This document shows positions 3,001 through 23,466 of a stretch of 40,251 nucleotides of DNA, piece by piece. The notes below the pieces were generated by a model. The model searched no databases. It saw only the letters and a list, made by a program, of their open reading frames with translations, and was not told the origin of the DNA. The translations under genes and the position numbers were made by a program. Each line of letters starts with the position of its first letter. Position 1 is the stretch's first letter. The DNA comes from Candidatus Methanophagales archaeon ANME-1-THS (lineage in GTDB: Archaea > Halobacteriota > Syntropharchaeia > Alkanophagales > Methanospirareceae): assembly GCA_004212135.1 (NCBI GenBank), contig RXIE01000129.1:1-40251 (forward strand), in the 5' to 3' direction.

Positions 3001-5596
3001 ATATACCTGTTCTGGTAGAGTCTCCATTATTTCTTAACCCTGATTTATTTATACTGTTGTTATGTGAATAATCAAAAGAGATTCCTCTGATTTCATTATC
3101 ATTAATTTCACAATTGATGATCTTACTTGAATTTGTTTTTGAATTTATAACTGTAATATTCGTTGAATTGTAGACCGCTATACCCGATAGAGCATTGTAT
3201 GCTGAAAAAGTAGAAATCGAAGAATCTTTCGTGTTATACAGGAGAACACCATGCGAGTTCGCGTTAAATCCGAAGCCTTCAAGTGTGATGTTACTGCAAT
3301 TGATGCACGCGAAAAAGTCTGCATTAGGCAATGTTGTTGAATTGAATATCTTATTAGATTCATTCTTTAAGTAATAAATCTTAAGCCCATTAACCGTATT
3401 CGATGTATCAATATCCAGGTCAAAGTCATCATCAGTAACTCCTCCCCAGTGGCCTTCATAATTTCCTGGATCAATGTAGAAATTGTATGTATTGCTTGAT
3501 ATTGTATTATTCCTCAGCGTTAGATTAGTTGAATATGCATCAGCTGATGATGACCATATTTCTATACCAGTGTATTTATATTTCACTGTATTATTGGATA
3601 TTATTAAGTTGCTTGCATGATTGATTTTGATGCCAGCATCATCCTTTTGTATTGGCGTTATTCCAGAAATTCTGTTGTTCATGATTTGGTTGTTATCAGA
3701 ATCAACCCTTATACCTCCATAACCCAACAGTTCATTTCCAGAGATGATGTTTTGCTCAGCATAATTATCTATCATCACCATCGGCATAGAATCACTTATA
3801 TTTTTCAGAAATGTATTGTTCTCAATTCGGTTACCAATCGCATGTTTATAGCTCAGCCCTTCAATAGCAATATATTTTTTACTATACCCGCCTTCTATAA
3901 AAATGTTAGAAGTGATAGTGTTATATTTAGATCCTTCCAGCTCAAGATAAGAAGATATGAATGTGTTATTCGCGATAAGATTTCTGTCAGAACTAGATAT
4001 TATATAGCCCTTTACAATAAATACACCACTTTGGTTGAATATATTGTTCCTTATTATATTGTCAGTTGATTCATGATCCGTAATCTGTGTGCAATCCCCA
4101 AGCCCGGAAACAAGGTAGGTTGTATATCCAACTTTTATTCCTGATTCAGGAATCGAGCCTATGGGGCATGGGCCAGAATAGCCGGAATTATTGATGTAGA
4201 ATCCTTGAATAATATTGCCATTAGATTTAAGAGTGAACCCACTGCCTGTTCGATTTGCATTCACCACGGGGTTCTCAACTCCCGTGATGTTCAGGCTCTT
4301 ATCCACAATGACATTCTCAACATAGGTGCCATTGCACACGATAATCGTGTCGCCATCCATCGAGGCATTCACGGCGTCCTGTATTATGGTGAAATTGGCG
4401 CCGGGGCACTGCACTTTATCGTCATCGACAATCCATATCACAGGATTTCGTATGGTGGTGAAGTCTCCAATCGAATTGTTTGAATACAGACTCGTGTTAT
4501 CCACCCGATAGGAGAAAACAGAGTAGTAATAAGTGGTATTGGCGAGCAAGCCAGAGAGCGTTATAGAAGGAAGTTGGGTATTATTATCCCATTCGGACCA
4601 TGACGCTGAGGAGAGATCGGGATTGAGACTATAGAGGATCCGGTTATCCGCTAAAACATTTGTCTGCCAGCTTATTGTTATGCTCGCATTGGTTACATCG
4701 CTCTCCTGAACGTTGCTGATCGAAGGTGGGAAAGGAGTTTCGAAAAGCATTGGGTAGTAATCATATGAAGATATCGAACAGCCCTCACCTCCATATATAT
4801 CTGATTCCGATAAAATATGATAAGGTTCATCTCCGATACCATCCCCATTTGAATCATCTCCCGTGTAATCATCCCAGTAGTTACCCGTATAGTTATTGTA
4901 AACCATCCCTCGGTAGATATATTCTCTTATTTCAGTAGAATTCCATTGATTCACACCGCATTCAATAGCATTGTGGGAATTAGCCCCAAAGCGATTCAGA
5001 TAAATCAAGTTGTTGTAACACCTTGAAATCATAATACCAGTATTTCCATTTGCAATTGTATTATTGATGATTGTGTTGTTAGATGAAGAATCAAATATGT
5101 AGATCCCATCTACAATATTTGTTATCGTGTTGTTTTCTATGCGGCTGAAATTTGCAGATTCAAGCTGGATGCCACCATAAGTATTAAAGATAATGTTATT
5201 TGAGACGGTTGTGTAGTTTGAATATTCAACATCTATACCATCTCCATCAGAATTTCCACCTTTAATCGTGAATCCAGTTATGTTCACATAATCCGCATGG
5301 ACCTTAATAACATCCTCGTTGATATCGAGAGCTTGAATTATGCAGTTTGAGGAGCCATTCTCAGATCTCAGCGTGAGACTCTTAGTTATCAGAATATTCT
5401 CGCTATACGTTCCATCACGTACGATAATAGTATCTCCCCCACCTGCTGCAGATATCGCAGTCTGGATATCCGAGTAATCATCAGGCACGTAGATCTCTGC
5501 AGCGGTGCATATCCCAATACCCGCGGATAAACCAATAAAGAGGAGCAGGCTGCAGGTAAGTACAATCTGTCCTTCCACGCTTTTTATGGGATACAT
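2..5596 (-). CDS. Large secreted/cell-surface protein (>1860 aa, 3' end outside window): signal peptide, two NosD/CASH-like parallel beta-helix blocks, FN3-like and Ig-like domains, uncharacterised C-terminal half
   Basis: Manual translation from ATG 5596: MYPIKSVEGQIVLTCSLLLFIGLSAGIGICTAAEIYVPDDYSDIQTAISAAGGGDTIIVRDGTYSENI. Beta-helix cap motifs GNYWDDYTGDDSNGDGIGDEPY (~4880-4820) and GGNYWQDYTGMDTTGGDGLGDTEIPY (~2765-2690). The same frame is still open at the left edge (...PPRDPNIEITLDPERVSC). Absence from the ORF track is consistent with no in-window stop. Confidence 0.9.
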   Translation of the reverse strand, partial: MYPIKSVEGQIVLTCSLLLFIGLSAGIGICTAAEIYVPDDYSDIQTAISAAGGGDTIIVRDGTYSENILITKSLTLRSENGSSNCIIQALDINEDVIKVHADYVNITGFTIKGGNSDGDGIDVEYSNYTTVSNNIIFNTYGGIQLESANFSRIENNTITNIVDGIYIFDSSSNNTIINNTIANGNTGIMISRCYNNLIYLNRFGANSHNAIECGVNQWNSTEIREYIYRGMVYNNYTGNYWDDYTGDDSNGDGIGDEPYHILSESDIYGGEGCSISSYDYYPMLFETPFPPSISNVQESDVTNASITISWQTNVLADNRILYSLNPDLSSASWSEWDNNTQLPSITLSGLLANTTYYYSVFSYRVDNTSLYSNNSIGDFTTIRNPVIWIVDDDKVQCPGANFTIIQDAVNASMDGDTIIVCNGTYVENVIVDKSLNITGVENPVVNANRTGSGFTLKSNGNIIQGFYINNSGYSGPCPIGSIPESGIKVGYTTYLVSGLGDCTQITDHESTDNIIRNNIFNQSGVFIVKGYIISSSDRNLIANNTFISSYLELEGSKYNTITSNIFIEGGYSKKYIAIEGLSYKHAIGNRIENNTFLKNISDSMPMVMIDNYAEQNIISGNELLGYGGIRVDSDNNQIMNNRISGITPIQKDDAGIKINHASNLIISNNTVKYKYTGIEIWSSSADAYSTNLTLRNNTISSNTYNFYIDPGNYEGHWGGVTDDDFDLDIDTSNTVNGLKIYYLKNESNKIFNSTTLPNADFFACINCSNITLEGFGFNANSHGVLLYNTKDSSISTFSAYNALSGIAVYNSTNITVINSKTNSSKIINCEINDNEIRGISFDYSHNNSINKSGLRNNGDSTRTGIYSITPVGLYFYESNNNIICTNNITGTGTRQKYGIYLSSSNNNTIYNNYFNNTINAYDYGYNNWNISKTPGTNIINGPYLGGNYWQDYTGMDTTGGDGLGDTEIPYNSSGEIRNGGDYLPLTNVAPDYTPPAIYVVSPVEGGRYTAPYVYLEVYSPDPDVYRWWYSLNSGANVSFTPNTTISGLTNGDYHLKVYVNDTPGNINSSTVNFTVSIPPAAWVGGGGDGEGYIIEEEPLEEVIEPVFKILITNPEENKFYSERGLVLSFISPLPLRRASYVLDQNEPEIISVAPFATPGTKVINRLLLGSHRIIVNGEDYYGRRGKGEVEFEIIPLTLGEVDAAGTRTSPRFIDDAAFSFYGRAVDYTLKFEAKGEVTIDIYVNGYYRDGMRSYGNLPSALIYSFQPSLSYQTYEIPISYAHITEDAENIISFISKNAETGGAKDWEVKNVSLIPALPFSFPQIRVFTFDKAISEHGSMIPLVKIDGIMNESDYNVYIYLLTPDGKKRYYPDWSGEEKPINTYYLRTNYYGRLPAILEFNNSFNPGTYMLVGTLTEANSVSPLSLSTDKMYYSNQTSVKIYINRETFADNQTIVIEHMLTGNATENGTLILSLENPRGERVYLPMRSARASGREYIPIKSDYFIALEETVDNNWKEGIYVVRSNLYSDDGDLIAEDIETFDVCRKQATISGVYWRHESDNDTSAFLLSRIRLIDFYTMEILEKEITGDHGSYSLNASPGTYFLTGECASKNGRLYTIPLILVNLKCGEVVQQNLILEYLGEIDPEWLGISSRNKASTSGFSASATLLLDENKWPLRLSDGSRTCSKPKVAVLVSLSEEAAELYLADLGERTENITPEMLKRGLSIKVAQYLRSVSPGVEIFSYGEIMGALEEVKEFLAENPGANPDLAKNSSARQIEYVYSVKIGAFGLHDYSIESHLIERENALVVHPTSQFSSHVSDLDAELDRMVRSLGNIEPIIKAHETTHPVPPRDPNIEITLDPERVSC

Positions 5597-6109
5597 GGTA
5601 TCCTGGATAACACTCGGTGCCAGATTACCCAACTATAGTTGGGTACTCCTCTATAAAAAAATTGAAGGACCTGGGTTAGGGACTTAAGGTAAGAACGAAA
5701 GGTCCTGCACCCTTCGACTTTTTATGATCGAAAAAGTTAAGACTAAACGGACGAGAGAAGAGATACTATAAATACTGGTACAAGATCGGCTTCATCCAAA
5801 AATAGGTAGAGCACTCCGCAGTTGATGGTATCTTCGTCTTGGTTTTGGTCGTGCAACCTCGCTAAAGAGAGCTCTTTTCTGCACTAATACCTTCTCAAAT
5901 CCGATTACCCCCGTAGGAGGTCGACTTTCGGGATGAAGCCTACAAAATCGAGACCATCCAAAAAAGGGAGAACGAGAACAAAAAACTGAGCTATTGATGA
6001 TTAAGGAAGGTGCTTTTTCACAAAAGAAAGGACAATTTTGGATTTTTGTTTTGATTCTGAAGAGGACGAAGCGAACATTTTGAGCGCCCGGTGCCAAAAA
6101 AGCGATACC

Positions 6110-7100
6110 ACCCTCTAGTGCTGCTCACCAATTTTTTGGCTATGTTCTTCTTCTCGTTACTTCAAGATGCCAACGAACAGATCCACCACTTCTCGTTACT
6201 GAAATAGGCGAGGATATTGTGTGCACAGAAATAGAGCTTCATGCCCTTTTCTTTCGCTTTCCGATAGTAACACTTGAGCGACCGTTTCTCCGCGTTCCCG
6301 AATGGTCTTTCTCACAGCTTTCTCCGTCCGTATCTCTCCTTATTCATGGCGTATTTCTCCATATACGCGCGTCTCAGCGCACCCCGAGCTTCTACTCCCT
6401 TCGGCTTTATCAGGATCTCCAGCTTTCGCGCTTCAGCATCGCGGTAATTTGCCCTGTCATCCAGGCGTTCCAACGCCTTACCCAGCCATTCCTCCGGTAT
6501 CTGGCTGTAAACGTAGTGCAGCTCCGAATCACACGGTGTAGAACCATCCACCATGCAATACTCCGTGTCCCGCAATTTCCGTTCCAAATCACTGAACGGC
6601 AAGACGCCCTTGCAGAGGAGGACTGCTATCATCAGCTTCCAGTCATACGTCCTGGGCCTTCCCCGGGATTTGGAAGGCATGGGCATTCCTATTTCATCAA
6701 TAATCTCCTCAGCAATCCCGAGCATCTCCGTGAATGAGGGTTGAGCGTCCTGCACCTGTCCCCTGAAGGGTCTATAGGTCCTTATACCCCACGGGCGCTC
6801 TTTTTCACTTCGCAAAGGGTTTCGTTCCTCGACGTACGTCCGCTGCACTACTTCGGCAAATGCACCATCCACCAATCCTGCAATTATCGCTTCTTCTGAC
6901 GTTTGTACCTCAAAGAGGGCAAAGAACTCGCTGGGGATCATGATCGAGGGGATGTCCTGTCTGCATAAAGAAAACAACTGCTGTTCTCTCACCATTCCCC
7001 TGTAAAACCAGGTGCAAAGCGATTTTTCACTATAAAGGCAAGATCGCACGTTCTCAATGAATTTGCATTCCATCAAAGGAATATATTGTCAATAAAACTT
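6110..7100 (-). mobile_element. Degraded insertion sequence (IS4/IS5-like DDE type); boundaries approximate
   Basis: Contains the transposase pseudogene below. Lies in a non-coding gap between the surface-protein gene and the housekeeping block. No convincing terminal inverted repeats found by eye. Confidence 0.6.
6162..6995 (-). pseudogene. Transposase pseudogene (IS4/IS5-like), internal deletion plus in-frame stop
   Basis: N-terminal KSRGRPRTY...TPCDSELHY helix-turn-helix region typical of DDE transposases. C-terminal Y-x2-R-x3-E signature YGRRKL*ERPFG is interrupted by TGA at 6312-6314 and continues in frame (NAEKRSLKCYYRK...FCAHNILAYF). The segment carrying the first two catalytic Asp appears missing between LERLDDR and ANYRD. 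Likely start ATG 6995 after AGGGGA. Confidence 0.75.
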
Positions 7101-7203
7101 CACACCTCTGTTGGAATCCAGAATACGCCGTTGTCTTCCACCAGTTAATCGCGAGCCGCTGTCTCTTAACTCATATCATATATTTTTGGGATGGTCTCTG
7201 CAA

Positions 7204-7222
7204 AATCGAAAGATTTTTAATA
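7204..7222 (+). promoter_or_regulatory. Archaeal BRE/TATA promoter
   Basis: aatCGAAAGaTTTTTAATAA about 40 bp upstream of ATG 7260; same CGAAAG-TTTTTAA pattern as upstream of fqoJ. Confidence 0.5.
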
Positions 7223-7259
7223 ACTCACCGGATAGTACTGCATACAGAGTGTCAGTCTA

Positions 7260-7616
7260 ATGTTTGAGGAAAAAAAAGGAGAGGTGGAAGTCTCAGAAGC
7301 ATTTTTGAAGACAATAGATACCTTTTACAAGGAACGGGACGCGATTTTTAACGAGTTTGATGCGATACGTGCGAAGTATTCAAAGGGCGAGACTATTATA
7401 GATGCGTTACGCGAGTTTCGACTCAAGCGGGCGAGTATCTTCACGTTGATTGACGCGATCTTTCACAAAGAGGTGGAGCTTGAGGATAAGCTTGCCCGGG
7501 CAGATATAGCGAAAGAAAAGAGAGAGAAGCTCCAGGAATTTAAGGATCGGTTTGCAGATCTCGCAGAAGAGATCGATTTATATGTGCTGAAAGAAATCGG
7601 CGTTGACCAACGGTAA
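7260..7616 (+). CDS. Hypothetical helical, charged protein (118 aa)
   Basis: ORF with protein-like E/K-rich helical composition, upstream TATA, converging on coaE. Confidence 0.8.
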   Translation: MFEEKKGEVEVSEAFLKTIDTFYKERDAIFNEFDAIRAKYSKGETIIDALREFRLKRASIFTLIDAIFHKEVELEDKLARADIAKEKREKLQEFKDRFADLAEEIDLYVLKEIGVDQR

Positions 7617-8274: not shown

Positions 8275-9285
8275 TTAAGAAAAATGTGCTAATAACCTTG
8301 CGACCGCATACGCAGGAAATGTCGCTGCGATCCTCTTCCCGTAGATGGAAGCAAGTGGCATAACCTGCATACCGAGGGAATCCGCAGCTTCGTGGACGAT
8401 GAAATCACCTATTCCTGCTGCAATTACCAGGTCCAATCCATACTTCTCCTTCATACTGTTTAACGACGCACGTAGCTCCTTTATTTGAGCACTTTTTACC
8501 TGTTCTGCAATGCGGATGGCGCCATCCTCGCCCAGTTCGTCGAGATCACTGCATACCACTCGTGAGAGTCTTCGGAGCGCACTCACTCTGCTCTTTTCAG
8601 CATGTTCGCGACCCGCAAATGCATACCTGTTCGGGCTCTCACAGCTATACTCATCCTCGGTCAGGTGGCCGAGAACGAGGTACGCGTCGGCCGTGATGGC
8701 GAACAGCTCTGAGGATATACCGCATTCTTCCCTCAGCACACCGAGCTTTACCTTCTTCAGCAGTGCGGCAATGTTGGTTCGCAGGATGCCGGAATAGATC
8801 AATTCGCCTGATTTGAGCCGTTCAAGATCCGTTCTCCGCGCCTTGAGCTCACCTCCAACGATTGGAATCACGTCCGTTGTCGTGCTGCCGATGTCAACGA
8901 ATATCGCATCCTTGTTTTGTACAGCGACGAATGTTGCCGATGCGAGCCAGTTGGTCGATGCGAACGAAAGTGGGTCTTTGTCTACCTCGGAGCTCTCTTT
9001 GAACATGCAATTCCGGTCGAAGAAGTGGGGGGCTTTAAAAGTGGTGGAGAGTGCGTTCTTTATGTATAAAACCCCTTCTCGTTTCGTCTCAAAGCAATCA
9101 CTGAGTTCCCCGGTCATCACAGCGCCAACAGCTTCTAGTTCTGTCCCGAATTGCTGGTTCGCCTCAGCAAGTACATCGTACAGTCGCTCCTTAGTTCTCC
9201 ATAATGGTGCATACCGCGAATCTACAAATCCATCTGAAGTGGCTATTTTGGTATTCGCACCCCCGACATCTATACCCACAAACAT
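8275..9285 (-). CDS. mfnF: Methanofuran biosynthesis protein MfnF (hydantoinase/oxoprolinase-like, H4MPT-linked C1 pathway protein)
   Basis: Start MFVGIDVGGANTK (ATG 9285); VMTGELSDCF..KREGV, ASTNW, FVDIGSTTTDVIPI, TDLERL..GEL.Y.G..RT, SSELFAITAD motifs. Confidence 0.82.
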   Translation of the reverse strand: MFVGIDVGGANTKIATSDGFVDSRYAPLWRTKERLYDVLAEANQQFGTELEAVGAVMTGELSDCFETKREGVLYIKNALSTTFKAPHFFDRNCMFKESSEVDKDPLSFASTNWLASATFVAVQNKDAIFVDIGSTTTDVIPIVGGELKARRTDLERLKSGELIYSGILRTNIAALLKKVKLGVLREECGISSELFAITADAYLVLGHLTEDEYSCESPNRYAFAGREHAEKSRVSALRRLSRVVCSDLDELGEDGAIRIAEQVKSAQIKELRASLNSMKEKYGLDLVIAAGIGDFIVHEAADSLGMQVMPLASIYGKRIAATFPAYAVARLLAHFS

Positions 9286-9362
9286 GCGATCACAACCAAA
9301 TTTAAAAAGAAAAGTTATTGAAAGAAATAGTATTGCTTTTGTGCCTGTTCTTCTCATGAACC

Positions 9363-10106
9363 ATGACCGAGACCAAAGACGAAGTGGCAACGAAAAAGGA
9401 CTTTGAAGAACGGCTGGACCGCTTGTTGAATCGTGCTGATGCGTGTAGTAAGTCGGTAGAAGCCGAATTGGGCAGATTAAAGAGTATAAAGGGCGAACTG
9501 AACGCACTCGTGAAGGAGTCGAGACGAATAAAGCTGAAGTTGAAGGAGGAGCATGAGTTCAGTGAGGAAGAACTTGAGGAACTGAGCGATACGATAGAGA
9601 TTTTGGAAGAGACGTTTGAACCGAAGCGGAAAAAAGCGGAAGAGGTATTGAGAGGAAAGGAGGCTGAGTATTTAACCTCGTTACAATACCTGAAGGCGGA
9701 ATTCGAGAACTATAAACGGAGAGCAGAGAAGGAGAAGCGGGAGTTTGGCGATTATCTGCTTGAAGGCTTTATAAGAGACTTGTTACCCATCAAAGACGCT
9801 TTAGAGGTCGCCATAAGGCATGCAAAAGAGAATGAGCAATCTGAAGGTCTGCTCAGGGGAATGGTGAGAGAACAGAAGCAAATCACTGAGCTCGTAACAC
9901 GGGAGGGGCTCGAGGAGATACAAGCTGAGGGACTGCAATTCGATCCGTTCAGGCACGAAGTGGTCTCAAGGCAGGTGGTTGAGCATCATCCTGAGAACAC
10001 GGTGATCGAGGTGCTGAGAAAGGGCTATCTGTTCCGTGGCAAGGTTATAAGACCCGCAATGGTGAAGATAGCGATCAAGGAGCAGATTGAGGGGGGCCAC
10101 GAATGA
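9363..10106 (+). CDS. grpE: Nucleotide exchange factor GrpE with long N-terminal coiled coil
   Basis: LQYLKAEFENYKRR, LLPIKDALE, FDPFRHEVV, NTVIEVLRKGYLFRGKVIRPAMVKIA. Confidence 0.93.
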   Translation: MTETKDEVATKKDFEERLDRLLNRADACSKSVEAELGRLKSIKGELNALVKESRRIKLKLKEEHEFSEEELEELSDTIEILEETFEPKRKKAEEVLRGKEAEYLTSLQYLKAEFENYKRRAEKEKREFGDYLLEGFIRDLLPIKDALEVAIRHAKENEQSEGLLRGMVREQKQITELVTREGLEEIQAEGLQFDPFRHEVVSRQVVEHHPENTVIEVLRKGYLFRGKVIRPAMVKIAIKEQIEGGHE

Positions 10107-15127: not shown

Positions 15128-16063
15128 ATGAATGCATTAAATGTGCGAGAAGTAGACAAACTGGAAGTTACAGTCTTGGTAGACAATTACACCGATGTAC
15201 TCTTACTCCAGAGCACCGAGGTCGTCAAGCGATCAGGGACTCCTCCTCCGAATCTGCCTCTCGCAGAACATGGATTAGCATGTCTTCTCAAAGTTAAGGC
15301 GGGCTCAGAGGAACACGTAGTGCTCATGGACGCAGGTGTATCGCCAACCTGTCTCTTTCACAATGCCGATGTTTTAAAGATAGACTTGAGCAAAGTCGAG
15401 TCGGTGGTTCTGAGTCATGGTCATTACGACCATTTCGGAGCACTCGTAGAATTTCTAAATAATGCACCAAAGGGAATACCCCTTATCCTCCATCCGGACG
15501 CTTTTTATGAGCGCCGCCTCAATGTCCCCCGTATTGGAGTAGCAGGCTTGCCTACGTTAGATGAAATAGCCTTAAAGAAAACCGGGGTGACGCTTCGTAA
15601 AGCCAGAGAGGCTTCTCTGTTGGTTTCAAATCTCATCTTGGTTTCAGGAGAAGTGGAGCGAGTAACCGATTTTGAGAAAGGCTTTCCTTGGGCTGAGGCG
15701 AAAATCGATGACAAATGGGTTGTAGATCCCTTTCACGATGACCAAGGTGTAGCGGTCAAGGTGAAAAACAAAGGTCTGGTAGTTATCAGCGGATGTTCCC
15801 ATGCTGGCATCATCAATACGGTCAAATATCTCCAGAAAGTTGCACGGACGAATAAGGTTCACGCGGTTTTGGGCGGTTTTCACCTCACAGGCCCGATTTT
15901 TGAGCCAATCGTTGGACCTACCATTCAGGAGATGAAGAGGATAGGCCCAGATTTCGTCGTGCCCATGCATTGCACCGGGTGGAAGGCTATCAATCAATTT
16001 GCCCAGGAGATGCCTGAGCAGTTCCTCCTCAATAGTGTAGGGACAACCTACGTCTTCCAATAA
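15128..16063 (+). CDS. MBL-fold metallo-hydrolase (MJ0448-like family)
   Basis: VLVDN, AEHGL, SHGHYDHFG, DDQ, SGCSHAG, GGFHL, PMHCTG; RBS GGAGG. Confidence 0.9.
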   Translation: MNALNVREVDKLEVTVLVDNYTDVLLLQSTEVVKRSGTPPPNLPLAEHGLACLLKVKAGSEEHVVLMDAGVSPTCLFHNADVLKIDLSKVESVVLSHGHYDHFGALVEFLNNAPKGIPLILHPDAFYERRLNVPRIGVAGLPTLDEIALKKTGVTLRKAREASLLVSNLILVSGEVERVTDFEKGFPWAEAKIDDKWVVDPFHDDQGVAVKVKNKGLVVISGCSHAGIINTVKYLQKVARTNKVHAVLGGFHLTGPIFEPIVGPTIQEMKRIGPDFVVPMHCTGWKAINQFAQEMPEQFLLNSVGTTYVFQ

Positions 16064-16074
16064 TCCTCATACCA
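16057..16074 (+). repeat. 18-bp direct repeat, copy 1 (CCAATAATCCTCATACCA)
   Basis: Identical to 17904-17921. Confidence 0.85.
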
Positions 16075-17903: not shown

Positions 17904-17921
17904 CCAATAATCCTCATACCA
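17904..17921 (+). repeat. 18-bp direct repeat, copy 2
   Basis: Identical to 16057-16074. Confidence 0.85.
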
Positions 17922-21138: not shown

Positions 21139-23466
21139 CTACCTATCCGCCTCCGGCGGGAAGTACCCGAAACTACCATAAACTGCCCAGAAGTCCGCAT
21201 ATCGTTCACCTTTGACCGCTTCCATGAATCCACGCAGGTTCATCCAGCAGGGGCTTATTACCCGCACACGGTACGGAACATTTGACTCGCCATCGCTGAT
21301 CAGCGAAAAGAGCAACGTGCCTCTCCCCGCTTCAGTAAGGCACGTCCATTCACCACGCGGCAGTACCAGGTTACCAAAAACGCGGAAGAAACTGCCCTTG
21401 ATATCACTCGCTGCCTCTTTATATTCGCCAAGGATCGCATCGCTCAAAATGGGGCCTTTGATACCTCGTACCGCATCCCCGGCCTGCTTTATGATCTTAA
21501 CGCTCTCCTTTATCTCTTCCAGCCTGCCCAGGAACCGTCCCAGACAATCGCCATCGTCGCCCGTCGTGACTTCCCAATCGAGCTTATCATACACCTCATA
21601 GGGCGACACTTTCCTGATATCATGGTTCACCCCGGATGCCCTCAGGAATGGTCCAACCATGCCGCACCGGATTGCATCCTCCTTCGTCAGCACCCCTACC
21701 CCCTTTGCCCGCGCCACGGTTACCGGGTTGGTCACGAAGATATCCTCGAACTTCTTCATCCGTTTATGGACTGCAAAGGTGATGTTATCAATCATTTTGA
21801 GCACATCGTCTGGAATGTCTCTCCGTATCCCACCAGGGACGACGAACGAAGGACCGCTTCTCGATCCCGTGATTCGCATCAGCGCTTCAATGATCATCTC
21901 ACGGATCGCCATGCAATACATGAACCCGGTCGTATGTCCAAAGAAGAGTGAGAAGATACCCGAATCGTAATAAAACGCTTCGATCCGCGAGAGTTCAGCC
22001 ATGATCGTCCGCAAATACTGTGCTCGTTCTGGAACTTCAATCCCGAGCGCCTTCTCGATCGTTCGCACATACCCCAGGTTCATATTCACCGGGTCATTGA
22101 TCGCCAGTCGCTCGAATAGCGGAATATTCTGGATGTATAGCTTATTCTCCGCGAGCTTCTCCATAGACCGATGCACAAATCCCGGTTCGGGGATCGCATC
22201 CACAATGACGTCGCCTTTTATTCTGAATGTCACCCGGAGATGCCCACTGCCCGCGTGATGAGGCCCTATGGGGACTACAATCTCGTCACTCTCGTATGCA
22301 TCTTTAATAAATTCTTCCCAGATCGGGACATAAAGATCCTTTGGCGGCTCGATGGGAACCATGAACTCAGGAGTCACATCCTTTTCAAACACGTATCGTT
22401 CCTCCGGGATCTTGAACTCTTTCCTCAAGGGGAGATCCGGTGTGTCGGGAGCAAGCAGGAACTTCTTGCCCATCCAGGTATTGCCCTCAAACCAGACCCC
22501 GAAGAACTCGTGCATTTCCCGTTCGCAATAATTCGCGCTCTCCCAGACCGAAGTAAGGCTTGGGATCTTCGGGTCTTTCATCCCGATCTCAGTGAAAATG
22601 GTGACGAGAACCGGCATCAGCGCCTCGACACTATAACTCGAAGCGGTATACTCCACAATAAACTTCCGCTCGTGGGGCACTTCGATCACATTCACGCTCT
22701 TCACGTGATCCAGTTGCATCTGATCCCGGAGTTTCCGGGCGACTTCCAACAGGTTTACCGGCGTGGTTCTGATCGCTATACGGTCCTTGCCGGTAATCGT
22801 TACGGATTTATAAAGCCCGTTAAGTTCTTTTTTGATTGTATCTGCCAATTCCTTCCCGAAATCCCAATCTACCTCCTGTTTAACATCCACTTTGATTGCC
22901 GGTGTGGGGGCATAGAGCTTGGGCGAGGTAGGCACCTTTCGCTCCTCCAGTTCCACGAACGGCAACTCCACCGTCTTAAATTCGATCGTCTTTCGGTCTA
23001 TGCCCATTATCTTATCTTGCAGCGCTCTCACACCTCGTAAAAGGGCTTCAGGAGTTATTGGACATCCCGGAACAAAGAAATCAACCGGAACGATATCAGA
23101 AGGATGGGTGATATTATAACTGTTCCAGAATATCCCGCCTCGTTCTCCACAGGCTCCTATCACGTTCACAAACTTCGGATCCGGCATCTGCCCATACACG
23201 AATTGCAACGCCCGTGCCATCTTCCTCGTTATCGTCCCCTCAATAATGATGAAATTCGATTGCCGCGAAATGCCCAGGTTTAACGTGATAGGAGCCTGTG
23301 GAGAACGAGGGCAGGCAAATGCATGAGCGAGCTCAACGCCGCAGCACGAGGTGATGAAGTGGCACGGCCATAAACTCCATTTCGCAGCCCATTTTTTAAA
23401 CGGTGCAAGCGGTCCTGATTCGAGGAATTGTATATGCGCGTTCTTATTTTCCATTTTTGTTCTCAT
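21139..23466 (-). CDS. fqoBCD: Fqo fused subunits B-C-D (NuoBCD)
   Basis: NuoB: KWSLWP..TSCCGVE, GACG, VPGCP. NuoC: ANYCEREMHEFFGVWFEG, PLRKEF. NuoD: GPHH, GFVHRSMEKLAE, VPERAQYLR, PYRVRV, PPEADR. No NiFe-binding CxxC pairs. Confidence 0.92.
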   Translation of the reverse strand: MRTKMENKNAHIQFLESGPLAPFKKWAAKWSLWPCHFITSCCGVELAHAFACPRSPQAPITLNLGISRQSNFIIIEGTITRKMARALQFVYGQMPDPKFVNVIGACGERGGIFWNSYNITHPSDIVPVDFFVPGCPITPEALLRGVRALQDKIMGIDRKTIEFKTVELPFVELEERKVPTSPKLYAPTPAIKVDVKQEVDWDFGKELADTIKKELNGLYKSVTITGKDRIAIRTTPVNLLEVARKLRDQMQLDHVKSVNVIEVPHERKFIVEYTASSYSVEALMPVLVTIFTEIGMKDPKIPSLTSVWESANYCEREMHEFFGVWFEGNTWMGKKFLLAPDTPDLPLRKEFKIPEERYVFEKDVTPEFMVPIEPPKDLYVPIWEEFIKDAYESDEIVVPIGPHHAGSGHLRVTFRIKGDVIVDAIPEPGFVHRSMEKLAENKLYIQNIPLFERLAINDPVNMNLGYVRTIEKALGIEVPERAQYLRTIMAELSRIEAFYYDSGIFSLFFGHTTGFMYCMAIREMIIEALMRITGSRSGPSFVVPGGIRRDIPDDVLKMIDNITFAVHKRMKKFEDIFVTNPVTVARAKGVGVLTKEDAIRCGMVGPFLRASGVNHDIRKVSPYEVYDKLDWEVTTGDDGDCLGRFLGRLEEIKESVKIIKQAGDAVRGIKGPILSDAILGEYKEAASDIKGSFFRVFGNLVLPRGEWTCLTEAGRGTLLFSLISDGESNVPYRVRVISPCWMNLRGFMEAVKGERYADFWAVYGSFGYFPPEADR
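23138..23310. repeat. Perfect 29-bp inverted repeat inside fqoB (23138-23166 / 23282-23310)
   Basis: CCTCGTTCTCCACAGGCTCCTATCACGTT and its exact reverse complement AACGTGATAGGAGCCTGTGGAGAACGAGG, 115 bp apart. Confidence 0.95.

Follow-up and report, generated by a model that had tools for sequence, protein, structure and literature searches.

The grpE paralogue in the window, which is the whole stretch of 40,251 nucleotides analysed here, carries a short run of codons that is also an exact inverted copy of sequence in a degenerate IS-like gene nearby, and this raises the question of how such a run came to stand in grpE with the length and the frame of the gene kept. A preliminary description of this DNA had noticed the run together with a similar one in an fqoB gene, suggested that one process might have made both, and left open whether that process is biological or technical. 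The window is the complete contig C152 of a metagenome-assembled draft genome, which has 181 contigs and 2,030,246 bases and is 86% complete. The features at issue are as follows.

9363-10106, plus strand: grpE paralogue, 247 aa (Pfam PF01025, E = 1.8e-37), with a long N-terminal coiled-coil region
9854-9875, plus strand: patch in grpE, 22 nt that copy 6981-7002 exactly and in inverted orientation, from codon L164 (last base) to codon Q171
6171-7073, minus strand: IS-like gene, a degenerate copy of a 393-aa multi-copy family and the sole copy in this assembly
6981-7002, minus strand: donor arm, which is native to the IS-like gene (codons 24-31, encoding YRGMVREQ)

The 22-nt sequence CAGGGGAATGGTGAGAGAACAG occurs at 9854-9875 on the plus strand and as its reverse complement at 6981-7002, so that the inverted identity first described at a distance of about 2.9 kb is indeed exact. 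The pair, I3 in our list, can be extended to 25 nt at 96% identity, again in agreement with the 24 of 25 matches reported before, and both arms, each read in the frame of its own gene, translate as RGMVREQ, as had been claimed. From start to start the arms are 2,873 nt apart, the largest distance in the class of inverted pairs described below. A search of the entire 2,030,246-base assembly with up to two mismatches allowed returned these two copies only.

The recipient is a GrpE by its full-length match to the PF01025 profile (residues 68-237, 129 bits where the cut-off is 25.8) and by its match to the solved GrpE structure 4ani_A (E = 4.4e-25). Its gene lies between a hydantoinase-like gene on one side and a diphthamide-synthase-like gene on the other, and a stand-alone grpE is kept in 19 genomes of the same archaeal family. 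The expectation that GrpE normally reads as a G-V-E-M type at this site, whereas the window has G-MVREQ at equal length, was borne out by these orthologues: all 19 have (R/K/E)-G-(V/M)-(E/G/A)-(M/L)-T-x-(K/Q)-(Q/R), where the window has R-G-M-V-R-E-Q-K-Q, the site has the same length throughout, and GMVREQ appears in none of them. The nearest relative in the database, which is 86% identical, reads KGVEMTMKQ at the patch site, and over the 65 residues just upstream of the patch it differs at a single position, with G135 for R. MVREQ is likewise encoded by none of 80 metagenome GrpE loci. The GrpE proteins related to this one carry the names Methanophagales and ANME-1. The patch is the only run of five residues in which the window GrpE leaves positions conserved in 19 of 19 orthologues; a codon-level alignment with them places the divergent part at about 9865-9875, that is, the 11 nt TGAGAGAACAG. 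The left 11 nt (9854-9864) are compatible in sequence with native grpE and may represent microhomology at the junction. A pair of frameshifts deriving MVREQ from VEMTV was also checked by eye, and in the nucleotide alignment it fitted no better than a replacement. We found no independent assembly of the same population: the window GrpE forms a singleton cluster with its nearest neighbour at 86% identity, and a metagenome scan for GrpE gave nothing closer than 76%.

Some further observations concern the surroundings and the paralogues of this gene. The hydantoinase-like ORF at 8275-9507 on the minus strand overlaps the start of grpE by 145 nt (9363-9507); since its Pfam match begins only at residue 126, its true start is probably further downstream. 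There is a shorter second GrpE at C93:7039-7530, 38% identical to the first, as well as a partial GrpE-like C-terminal match at C75:507-698 within a frame of 382 aa, and relatives carry the same two or three GrpE-like genes.

Regarding the donor, the preliminary description took it for a transposase pseudogene and took the 22-mer for its ribosome-binding site, ATG and first codons. To call it an IS-like pseudogene is reasonable. Compared with P0002 by tblastn, the window copy lacks residues 210-291 (a deletion of 82 residues) and its frame is interrupted by a stop at RRKL*ERPF; homologues of the family are located on contigs of 1.4-1.9 kb, and there are 10 matches in the genome of another species of the genus (G001), several of them adjoining a contig end, so that the family is multi-copy, dispersed and carried on short contigs, as an insertion sequence would be. 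A transposase identity is putative: the best Pfam match of a full-length homologue is DDE_Tnp_1 at E = 0.19 and 11.9 bits, below the cut-off of 23, and the ORF that holds the donor arm (6312-7076, minus strand) matches nothing in Pfam or NCBIfam. The element may belong to an undescribed family of insertion sequences or transposases in ANME-1-type metagenomes. As for the gene start, six of seven full-length homologues begin 26 codons upstream of the inner methionine (MECKF...) and one is called in the region of that methionine, hence the 22-mer corresponds to codons 24-31 and is not clearly a gene start. The sequence TTTTACAGGGGAATGaTGAGAGAACAGCAG is found at the same place in IS-like copies of another species of the genus and of another genus, and RGMVRE is exact in three of the seven homologues fetched. 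Because the homologues carry the sequence natively and all GrpE orthologues are without it, grpE received its copy from the IS-like gene, which is the direction of copying first supposed. The IS-like element region spans 6171-7163 in the window; beside the gene, 5788-5940 (153 nt) is 90% identical to C114:4052-4203, and a tRNA search of 4500-7600 found none.

The second patch in the window belongs to a pair of the same kind.

23282-23310, minus strand: patch of 29 nt (pair I1) in the NuoB/FqoB-like part of a 778-aa ORF
23138-23166, minus strand: its donor arm, native sequence that encodes NVIGACGERG

The donor peptide NVIGACGERG is identical in four of nine relatives and nearly so in the remainder, and at the recipient site AC-GYDGERLG-TLNLG of the relatives has become AC-PRSPQAPI-TLNLG in this genome. 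The suggestion that the grpE and fqoB patches share one process is correct. The same inverted, length-preserving class occurs about 60 times in the assembly, with ordinary neighbouring genes as the other donors, which answers the question whether other genes hold similar patches.

The class was defined by a census of isolated exact repeats within 3 kb on the same contig, from which low-complexity sequence was removed and in which fewer than 15 of 30 flanking bases were allowed to match on each side. It yielded 63 local inverted pairs of 16-29 nt, every arm of them perfect, with a flat distribution of lengths (6, 5, 4, 8, 2, 4, 7, 6, 4, 3, 4, 3, 3 and 4 pairs from 16 to 29 nt) and none at 30-49 nt. 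Most of the inverted pairs are 80-400 nt apart, and no same-contig inverted pair of at least 20 nt is separated by more than 2,873 nt. Direct pairs are fewer, 25 at 16-29 nt with one more each at 32, 34 and 47 nt, and this preponderance of inverted copies with nearby partners (63 against 25) is what an artefact of chimeric reads would be expected to give. At 16 nt or longer the controls, in which the genome was compared with its own reversed or complemented self, contained 0 and 1 pairs, and at 18 nt or longer no local pairs over the whole genome. At long range, that is, on other contigs or beyond 3 kb, the isolated two-copy matches of at least 19 nt exceed those of the controls modestly, with 27 direct matches against 5 and 39 inverted ones against 7; they are mostly 19-21 nt long and none of them lies at a contig end.

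To see what the patches do to genes, we examined orthologues for 11 internal pairs, of which three gave no information: in C73 the arm lies at a gene boundary, in C118 there were weak partial matches away from the arms, and in C51 there was no match. Each of the eight informative cases combines a native arm with one that replaces sequence of equal length and is unique to this genome, as listed here.

grpE (window): GVEMT in relatives, GMVREQ in this genome
FqoB-like (window): GYDGERLG in relatives, PRSPQAPI in this genome
Proton_antipo_M subunit (C61): AGLEIEMG in relatives, SSRSR*SP in this genome
Spt5 (C56): MVPIPVTV in relatives, NNPGNRWF in this genome
Pus10 (C141): AGLYI in relatives, SNAFF in this genome
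CdhA-like (C130): LPPGR in relatives, YYGLR in this genome
DUF1670 (C168): KSSADTEA in relatives, NYSIYRR* in this genome
C100: a weaker case, at 41-52% identity

Two of these eight patches contain an in-frame stop. The one in C61 splits a single Pfam domain, of which profile positions 1-194 are matched upstream and 199-286 downstream. More broadly, stops were found in 9 of 40 pairs that have an arm in a long open frame, an upper bound as some of them may be natural gene ends, and overlaying 11-25 nt without selection in simulation produced stops at 14-27%; the observed fractions (2/8 and 9/40) are thus those expected when selection is absent, as for an artefact. No frameshift was seen among the patches checked. 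Stops at the unselected rate combined with the absence of frameshifts indicate a process that keeps length inherently and is not filtered by selection. Examples of patches stand at C56:17077-17104, C61:3036-3058, C130:9648-9669, C141:1765-1787, C168:5864-5892 and C144:2577-2605.

The position of the copies with respect to contig ends also bears on the nature of this process. In 10 of the 57 inverted pairs of at least 17 nt, one arm ends exactly on the first or the last base of its contig (C95, C97, C113, C9, C7, C153, C87, C112, C116 and C89), and 4 of the 25 direct pairs are flush with a contig end as well (C33, C150, C32 and C26), while by our own arithmetic, from 362 contig ends and 2.03 Mb, about 0.01 flush arms would be expected by chance. 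Such coincidence with landmarks of the assembly, in 10 inverted and 4 direct copies, is as expected of an artefact. Moreover, in all three terminal cases tested (C9, C97 and C116) the last residues leave an orthologue alignment of 70-83% identity exactly at the copy, and one of the three tails contains a stop. On this sequence evidence the terminal arms are non-native tails, as a chimeric read leaves at the end of a contig. Two runs of N, 27 bases at C122:4600-4626 and 10 bases at C175:3766-3775, tell that the contigs are in fact scaffolds; local copies of at least 11 nt, whether inverted or direct, are absent from the flanks of these two gaps, so that the scaffold joins are not directly linkable to the tails. 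An overlap of fixed length between contig ends was not found either, only overlaps of 19, 22 and 58 nt, once each, from which the k of the assembler is not inferable.

The patches appear to be confined to this data set. A sample of 670,235 bases from five relatives, to which a near-closed genome of the family contributed 400 kb, three MAGs of the same genus 194 kb and another genus 76 kb, contains no inverted pair of the patch type, where about 21 would be expected at the density of this genome; on the scale of this sample, the confinement to one assembly is again as expected of an artefact. The near-closed genome has 29 local direct repeats, which are mostly tandem-like and represent a different phenomenon. 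The sole inverted match in the sample is a copy of a GC-rich hairpin repeat. This repeat is one of a palindromic family of 25-50 nt with the core TAAGCCCTTACAGGGCTTGCGGGGTC, which is dispersed over many contigs of the present assembly (C129:3431, C149:1326, C89:57892 and C105:8346) and is present in G001 too (C165:31732 and C267:10019).

Taken together, the flush ends, the limit at 29 nt, the perfect arms, the essential genes with unselected stops and the clean sample of relatives fit the tails of chimeric reads, and no known biological process fits them. The patch in grpE is therefore very probably an error of the draft assembly, in which inverted tails of chimeric reads have entered the consensus, a reading drawn from the assembly itself. 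A technical origin follows from the occurrence of about 60 cases in one assembly, 14 flush ends, absence from the sampled relatives, overwritten conserved residues and unselected stops, and the alternative left open in the preliminary description, biological or technical, is thereby turned towards the technical side.

We infer chimeric reads as the source, and likewise the route by which the assembler took them in. The sequenced DNA would have held chimeric molecules that run along the genome and then continue on the opposite strand, a few hundred to a few thousand bases away, formed by multiple-displacement amplification (MDA) or by fold-back of single-stranded ends during library preparation. 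Of such reads the assembler would have kept short tails that do not match, at most 29 nt long with the microhomology at the junction counted in. Where a contig stopped, the tail would be left as its final bases; where the contig was joined without a gap to its true continuation, the tail would overwrite the native bases one for one, giving an inverted patch with length and frame kept. For grpE, the strand up to ...CAGGGGAATGG (9864) would have continued into the IS-like gene (TGAGAGAACAG), turning G-V-E-M-T-x into G-MVREQ. If a contig end with a chimeric tip were joined to its true continuation without gaps and with mismatches tolerated, the overwriting would be exact and its length limited. 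The scaffolder of a common assembler has such an ungapped end-joining step.

Two kinds of artefact reads are known that resemble what is required. The chimeras produced by MDA, as described by Lasken and Stockwell (2007, PMC1855051), were 85% inverted, with partners mostly less than 10 kb apart and fewer with increasing distance, and with 2-21 nt of complementarity at the junction. The present pairs are like them in being mostly inverted with a minority of direct joins (57 inverted against 25 direct local pairs, the inverted ones all within 2.9 kb) and in showing short junction complementarity, with possible microhomology over about 11 nt in grpE; they are unlike the chimeras of that report, which are reads with one junction, in that a tail of at most 29 nt is fixed in the consensus and, internally, overwrites the same length. 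Library preparation is the second known source: Haile et al. (2018, PMC6344851) described strand-split artefact reads that form there when the DNA is single-stranded or damaged. In these too the two parts of a read map to opposite strands of nearby DNA and the origin is purely technical, although the reads of that account come from FFPE human DNA.

Among the biological explanations, the one that survives best is real mutation by template switching, in which the nascent grpE strand switched, at the microhomology AGGGGAATGG, to the opposite strand within the IS-like gene and returned after some 11 nt of copying, as part of a recent burst in this ANME-1 lineage; we regard it as unlikely. That template switching makes short inverted copies which resemble mutation clusters is documented (Löytynoja and Goldman 2017, PMC5453318). 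The present patches share with the events of that study that a nearby inverted copy replaces local sequence and so looks like a cluster of substitutions. The geometry, which is inverted, local and flanked by microhomology, fits well, the inverted nearby copy explains the cluster of changes in one event, and the patches do stand in the consensus of the assembly. A related case is quasipalindrome correction in bacteria, by which a short inverted nearby copy replaces local sequence.

Against template switching, a biological process is blind to contig ends, yet 14 copies are flush with them and all three of those tested are non-native tails, so that the copies give no sign of a presence in the DNA independent of the assembly. 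In addition, all arms are perfect and the lengths end sharply at 29 nt; conserved motifs of Spt5, FqoB-like, CdhA-like and Pus10 proteins are overwritten, with stops at the unselected rate; template switching by itself need not keep length, but equal length was seen in eight of eight cases checked; and the sampled relatives have nothing alike. The variants reported in PMC5453318 are inherited and were confirmed in reads of two technologies, whereas the patches here track contig ends, do not exceed 29 nt, are unselected and occur in one assembly. A special form of this process might be imagined, namely a real burst of strictly length-preserving, short-range switching with a limit of about 30 nt (set, for example, by an intermediate of primer size), in this ANME-1 lineage or in the DNA of the population sampled, that overwrote coding sequence throughout the genome, including grpE, the FqoB-like gene and spt5, and whose polymorphic patches broke the assembly and so produced copies at contig ends. 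We consider such a burst very unlikely.

Recombination related to the insertion sequence, either a footprint of element excision or ectopic gene conversion between grpE and the IS-like gene, would draw on the membership of the donor in a multi-copy IS-like family and on its distance of just 2.9 kb, and it is highly improbable in view of the local sequence. The 22-mer is inside the coding region of the element (codons 24-31) and not at its end; a footprint would add bases, whereas here they are swapped one for one; identity between the two arms over their 40-nt flanks is just 17% and 33%, too low for gene conversion; and neither element termini nor target-site duplications nor homologous flanks were seen at 9854-9875. 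An internal 22-mer, a replacement in place of an insertion and dissimilar flanks lead us to reject both forms. Furthermore, the other patches, about 60, have ordinary genes as donors. Since these are simply neighbouring coding sequence, the IS origin of the donor is without special meaning and the IS-like gene has no role beyond its proximity to grpE.

A chance match of two native sequences has a next to negligible probability: some 22-mers should, by our own estimate, recur within a few kb among the very many windows scanned, but 100 shuffles of the window that preserved dinucleotides never gave two matches, the whole-genome controls are empty at 18 nt or longer locally, and the match coincides with the sole run that departs from GrpE positions conserved in 19 of 19 orthologues, so that the alignment rules out what had first been called very unlikely.

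If the patch is an assembly error, as we think very probable, the GrpE of the organism is almost certainly normal, G-V-E-M-T helix included, and the biological weight of the patch itself is small. Its weight is that of a warning about data quality, because the genome is a species representative with about 60 overwritten stretches (at least 57 of at least 17 nt). False stops would split the genes for the Proton_antipo_M subunit and the DUF1670 protein, and the motifs of Spt5, FqoB-like, CdhA-like and Pus10 proteins would appear destroyed. Odd local residues, split genes and short inverted repeats in this genome should be checked against the list of patches before they are interpreted. The census, which combines local inverted exact repeats with reversed and complemented controls and with flushness to contig ends, offers a cheap screen for other assemblies.

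One direct repeat in the window may be mentioned in addition. The sequence CCAATAATCCTCATACCA occurs as an exact 18-nt direct repeat at 16057-16074 and 17904-17921, 1.8 kb apart, and in the best local frame each copy includes a stop; the repeat may be a direct-type member of the artefact class or a motif shared by gene ends.
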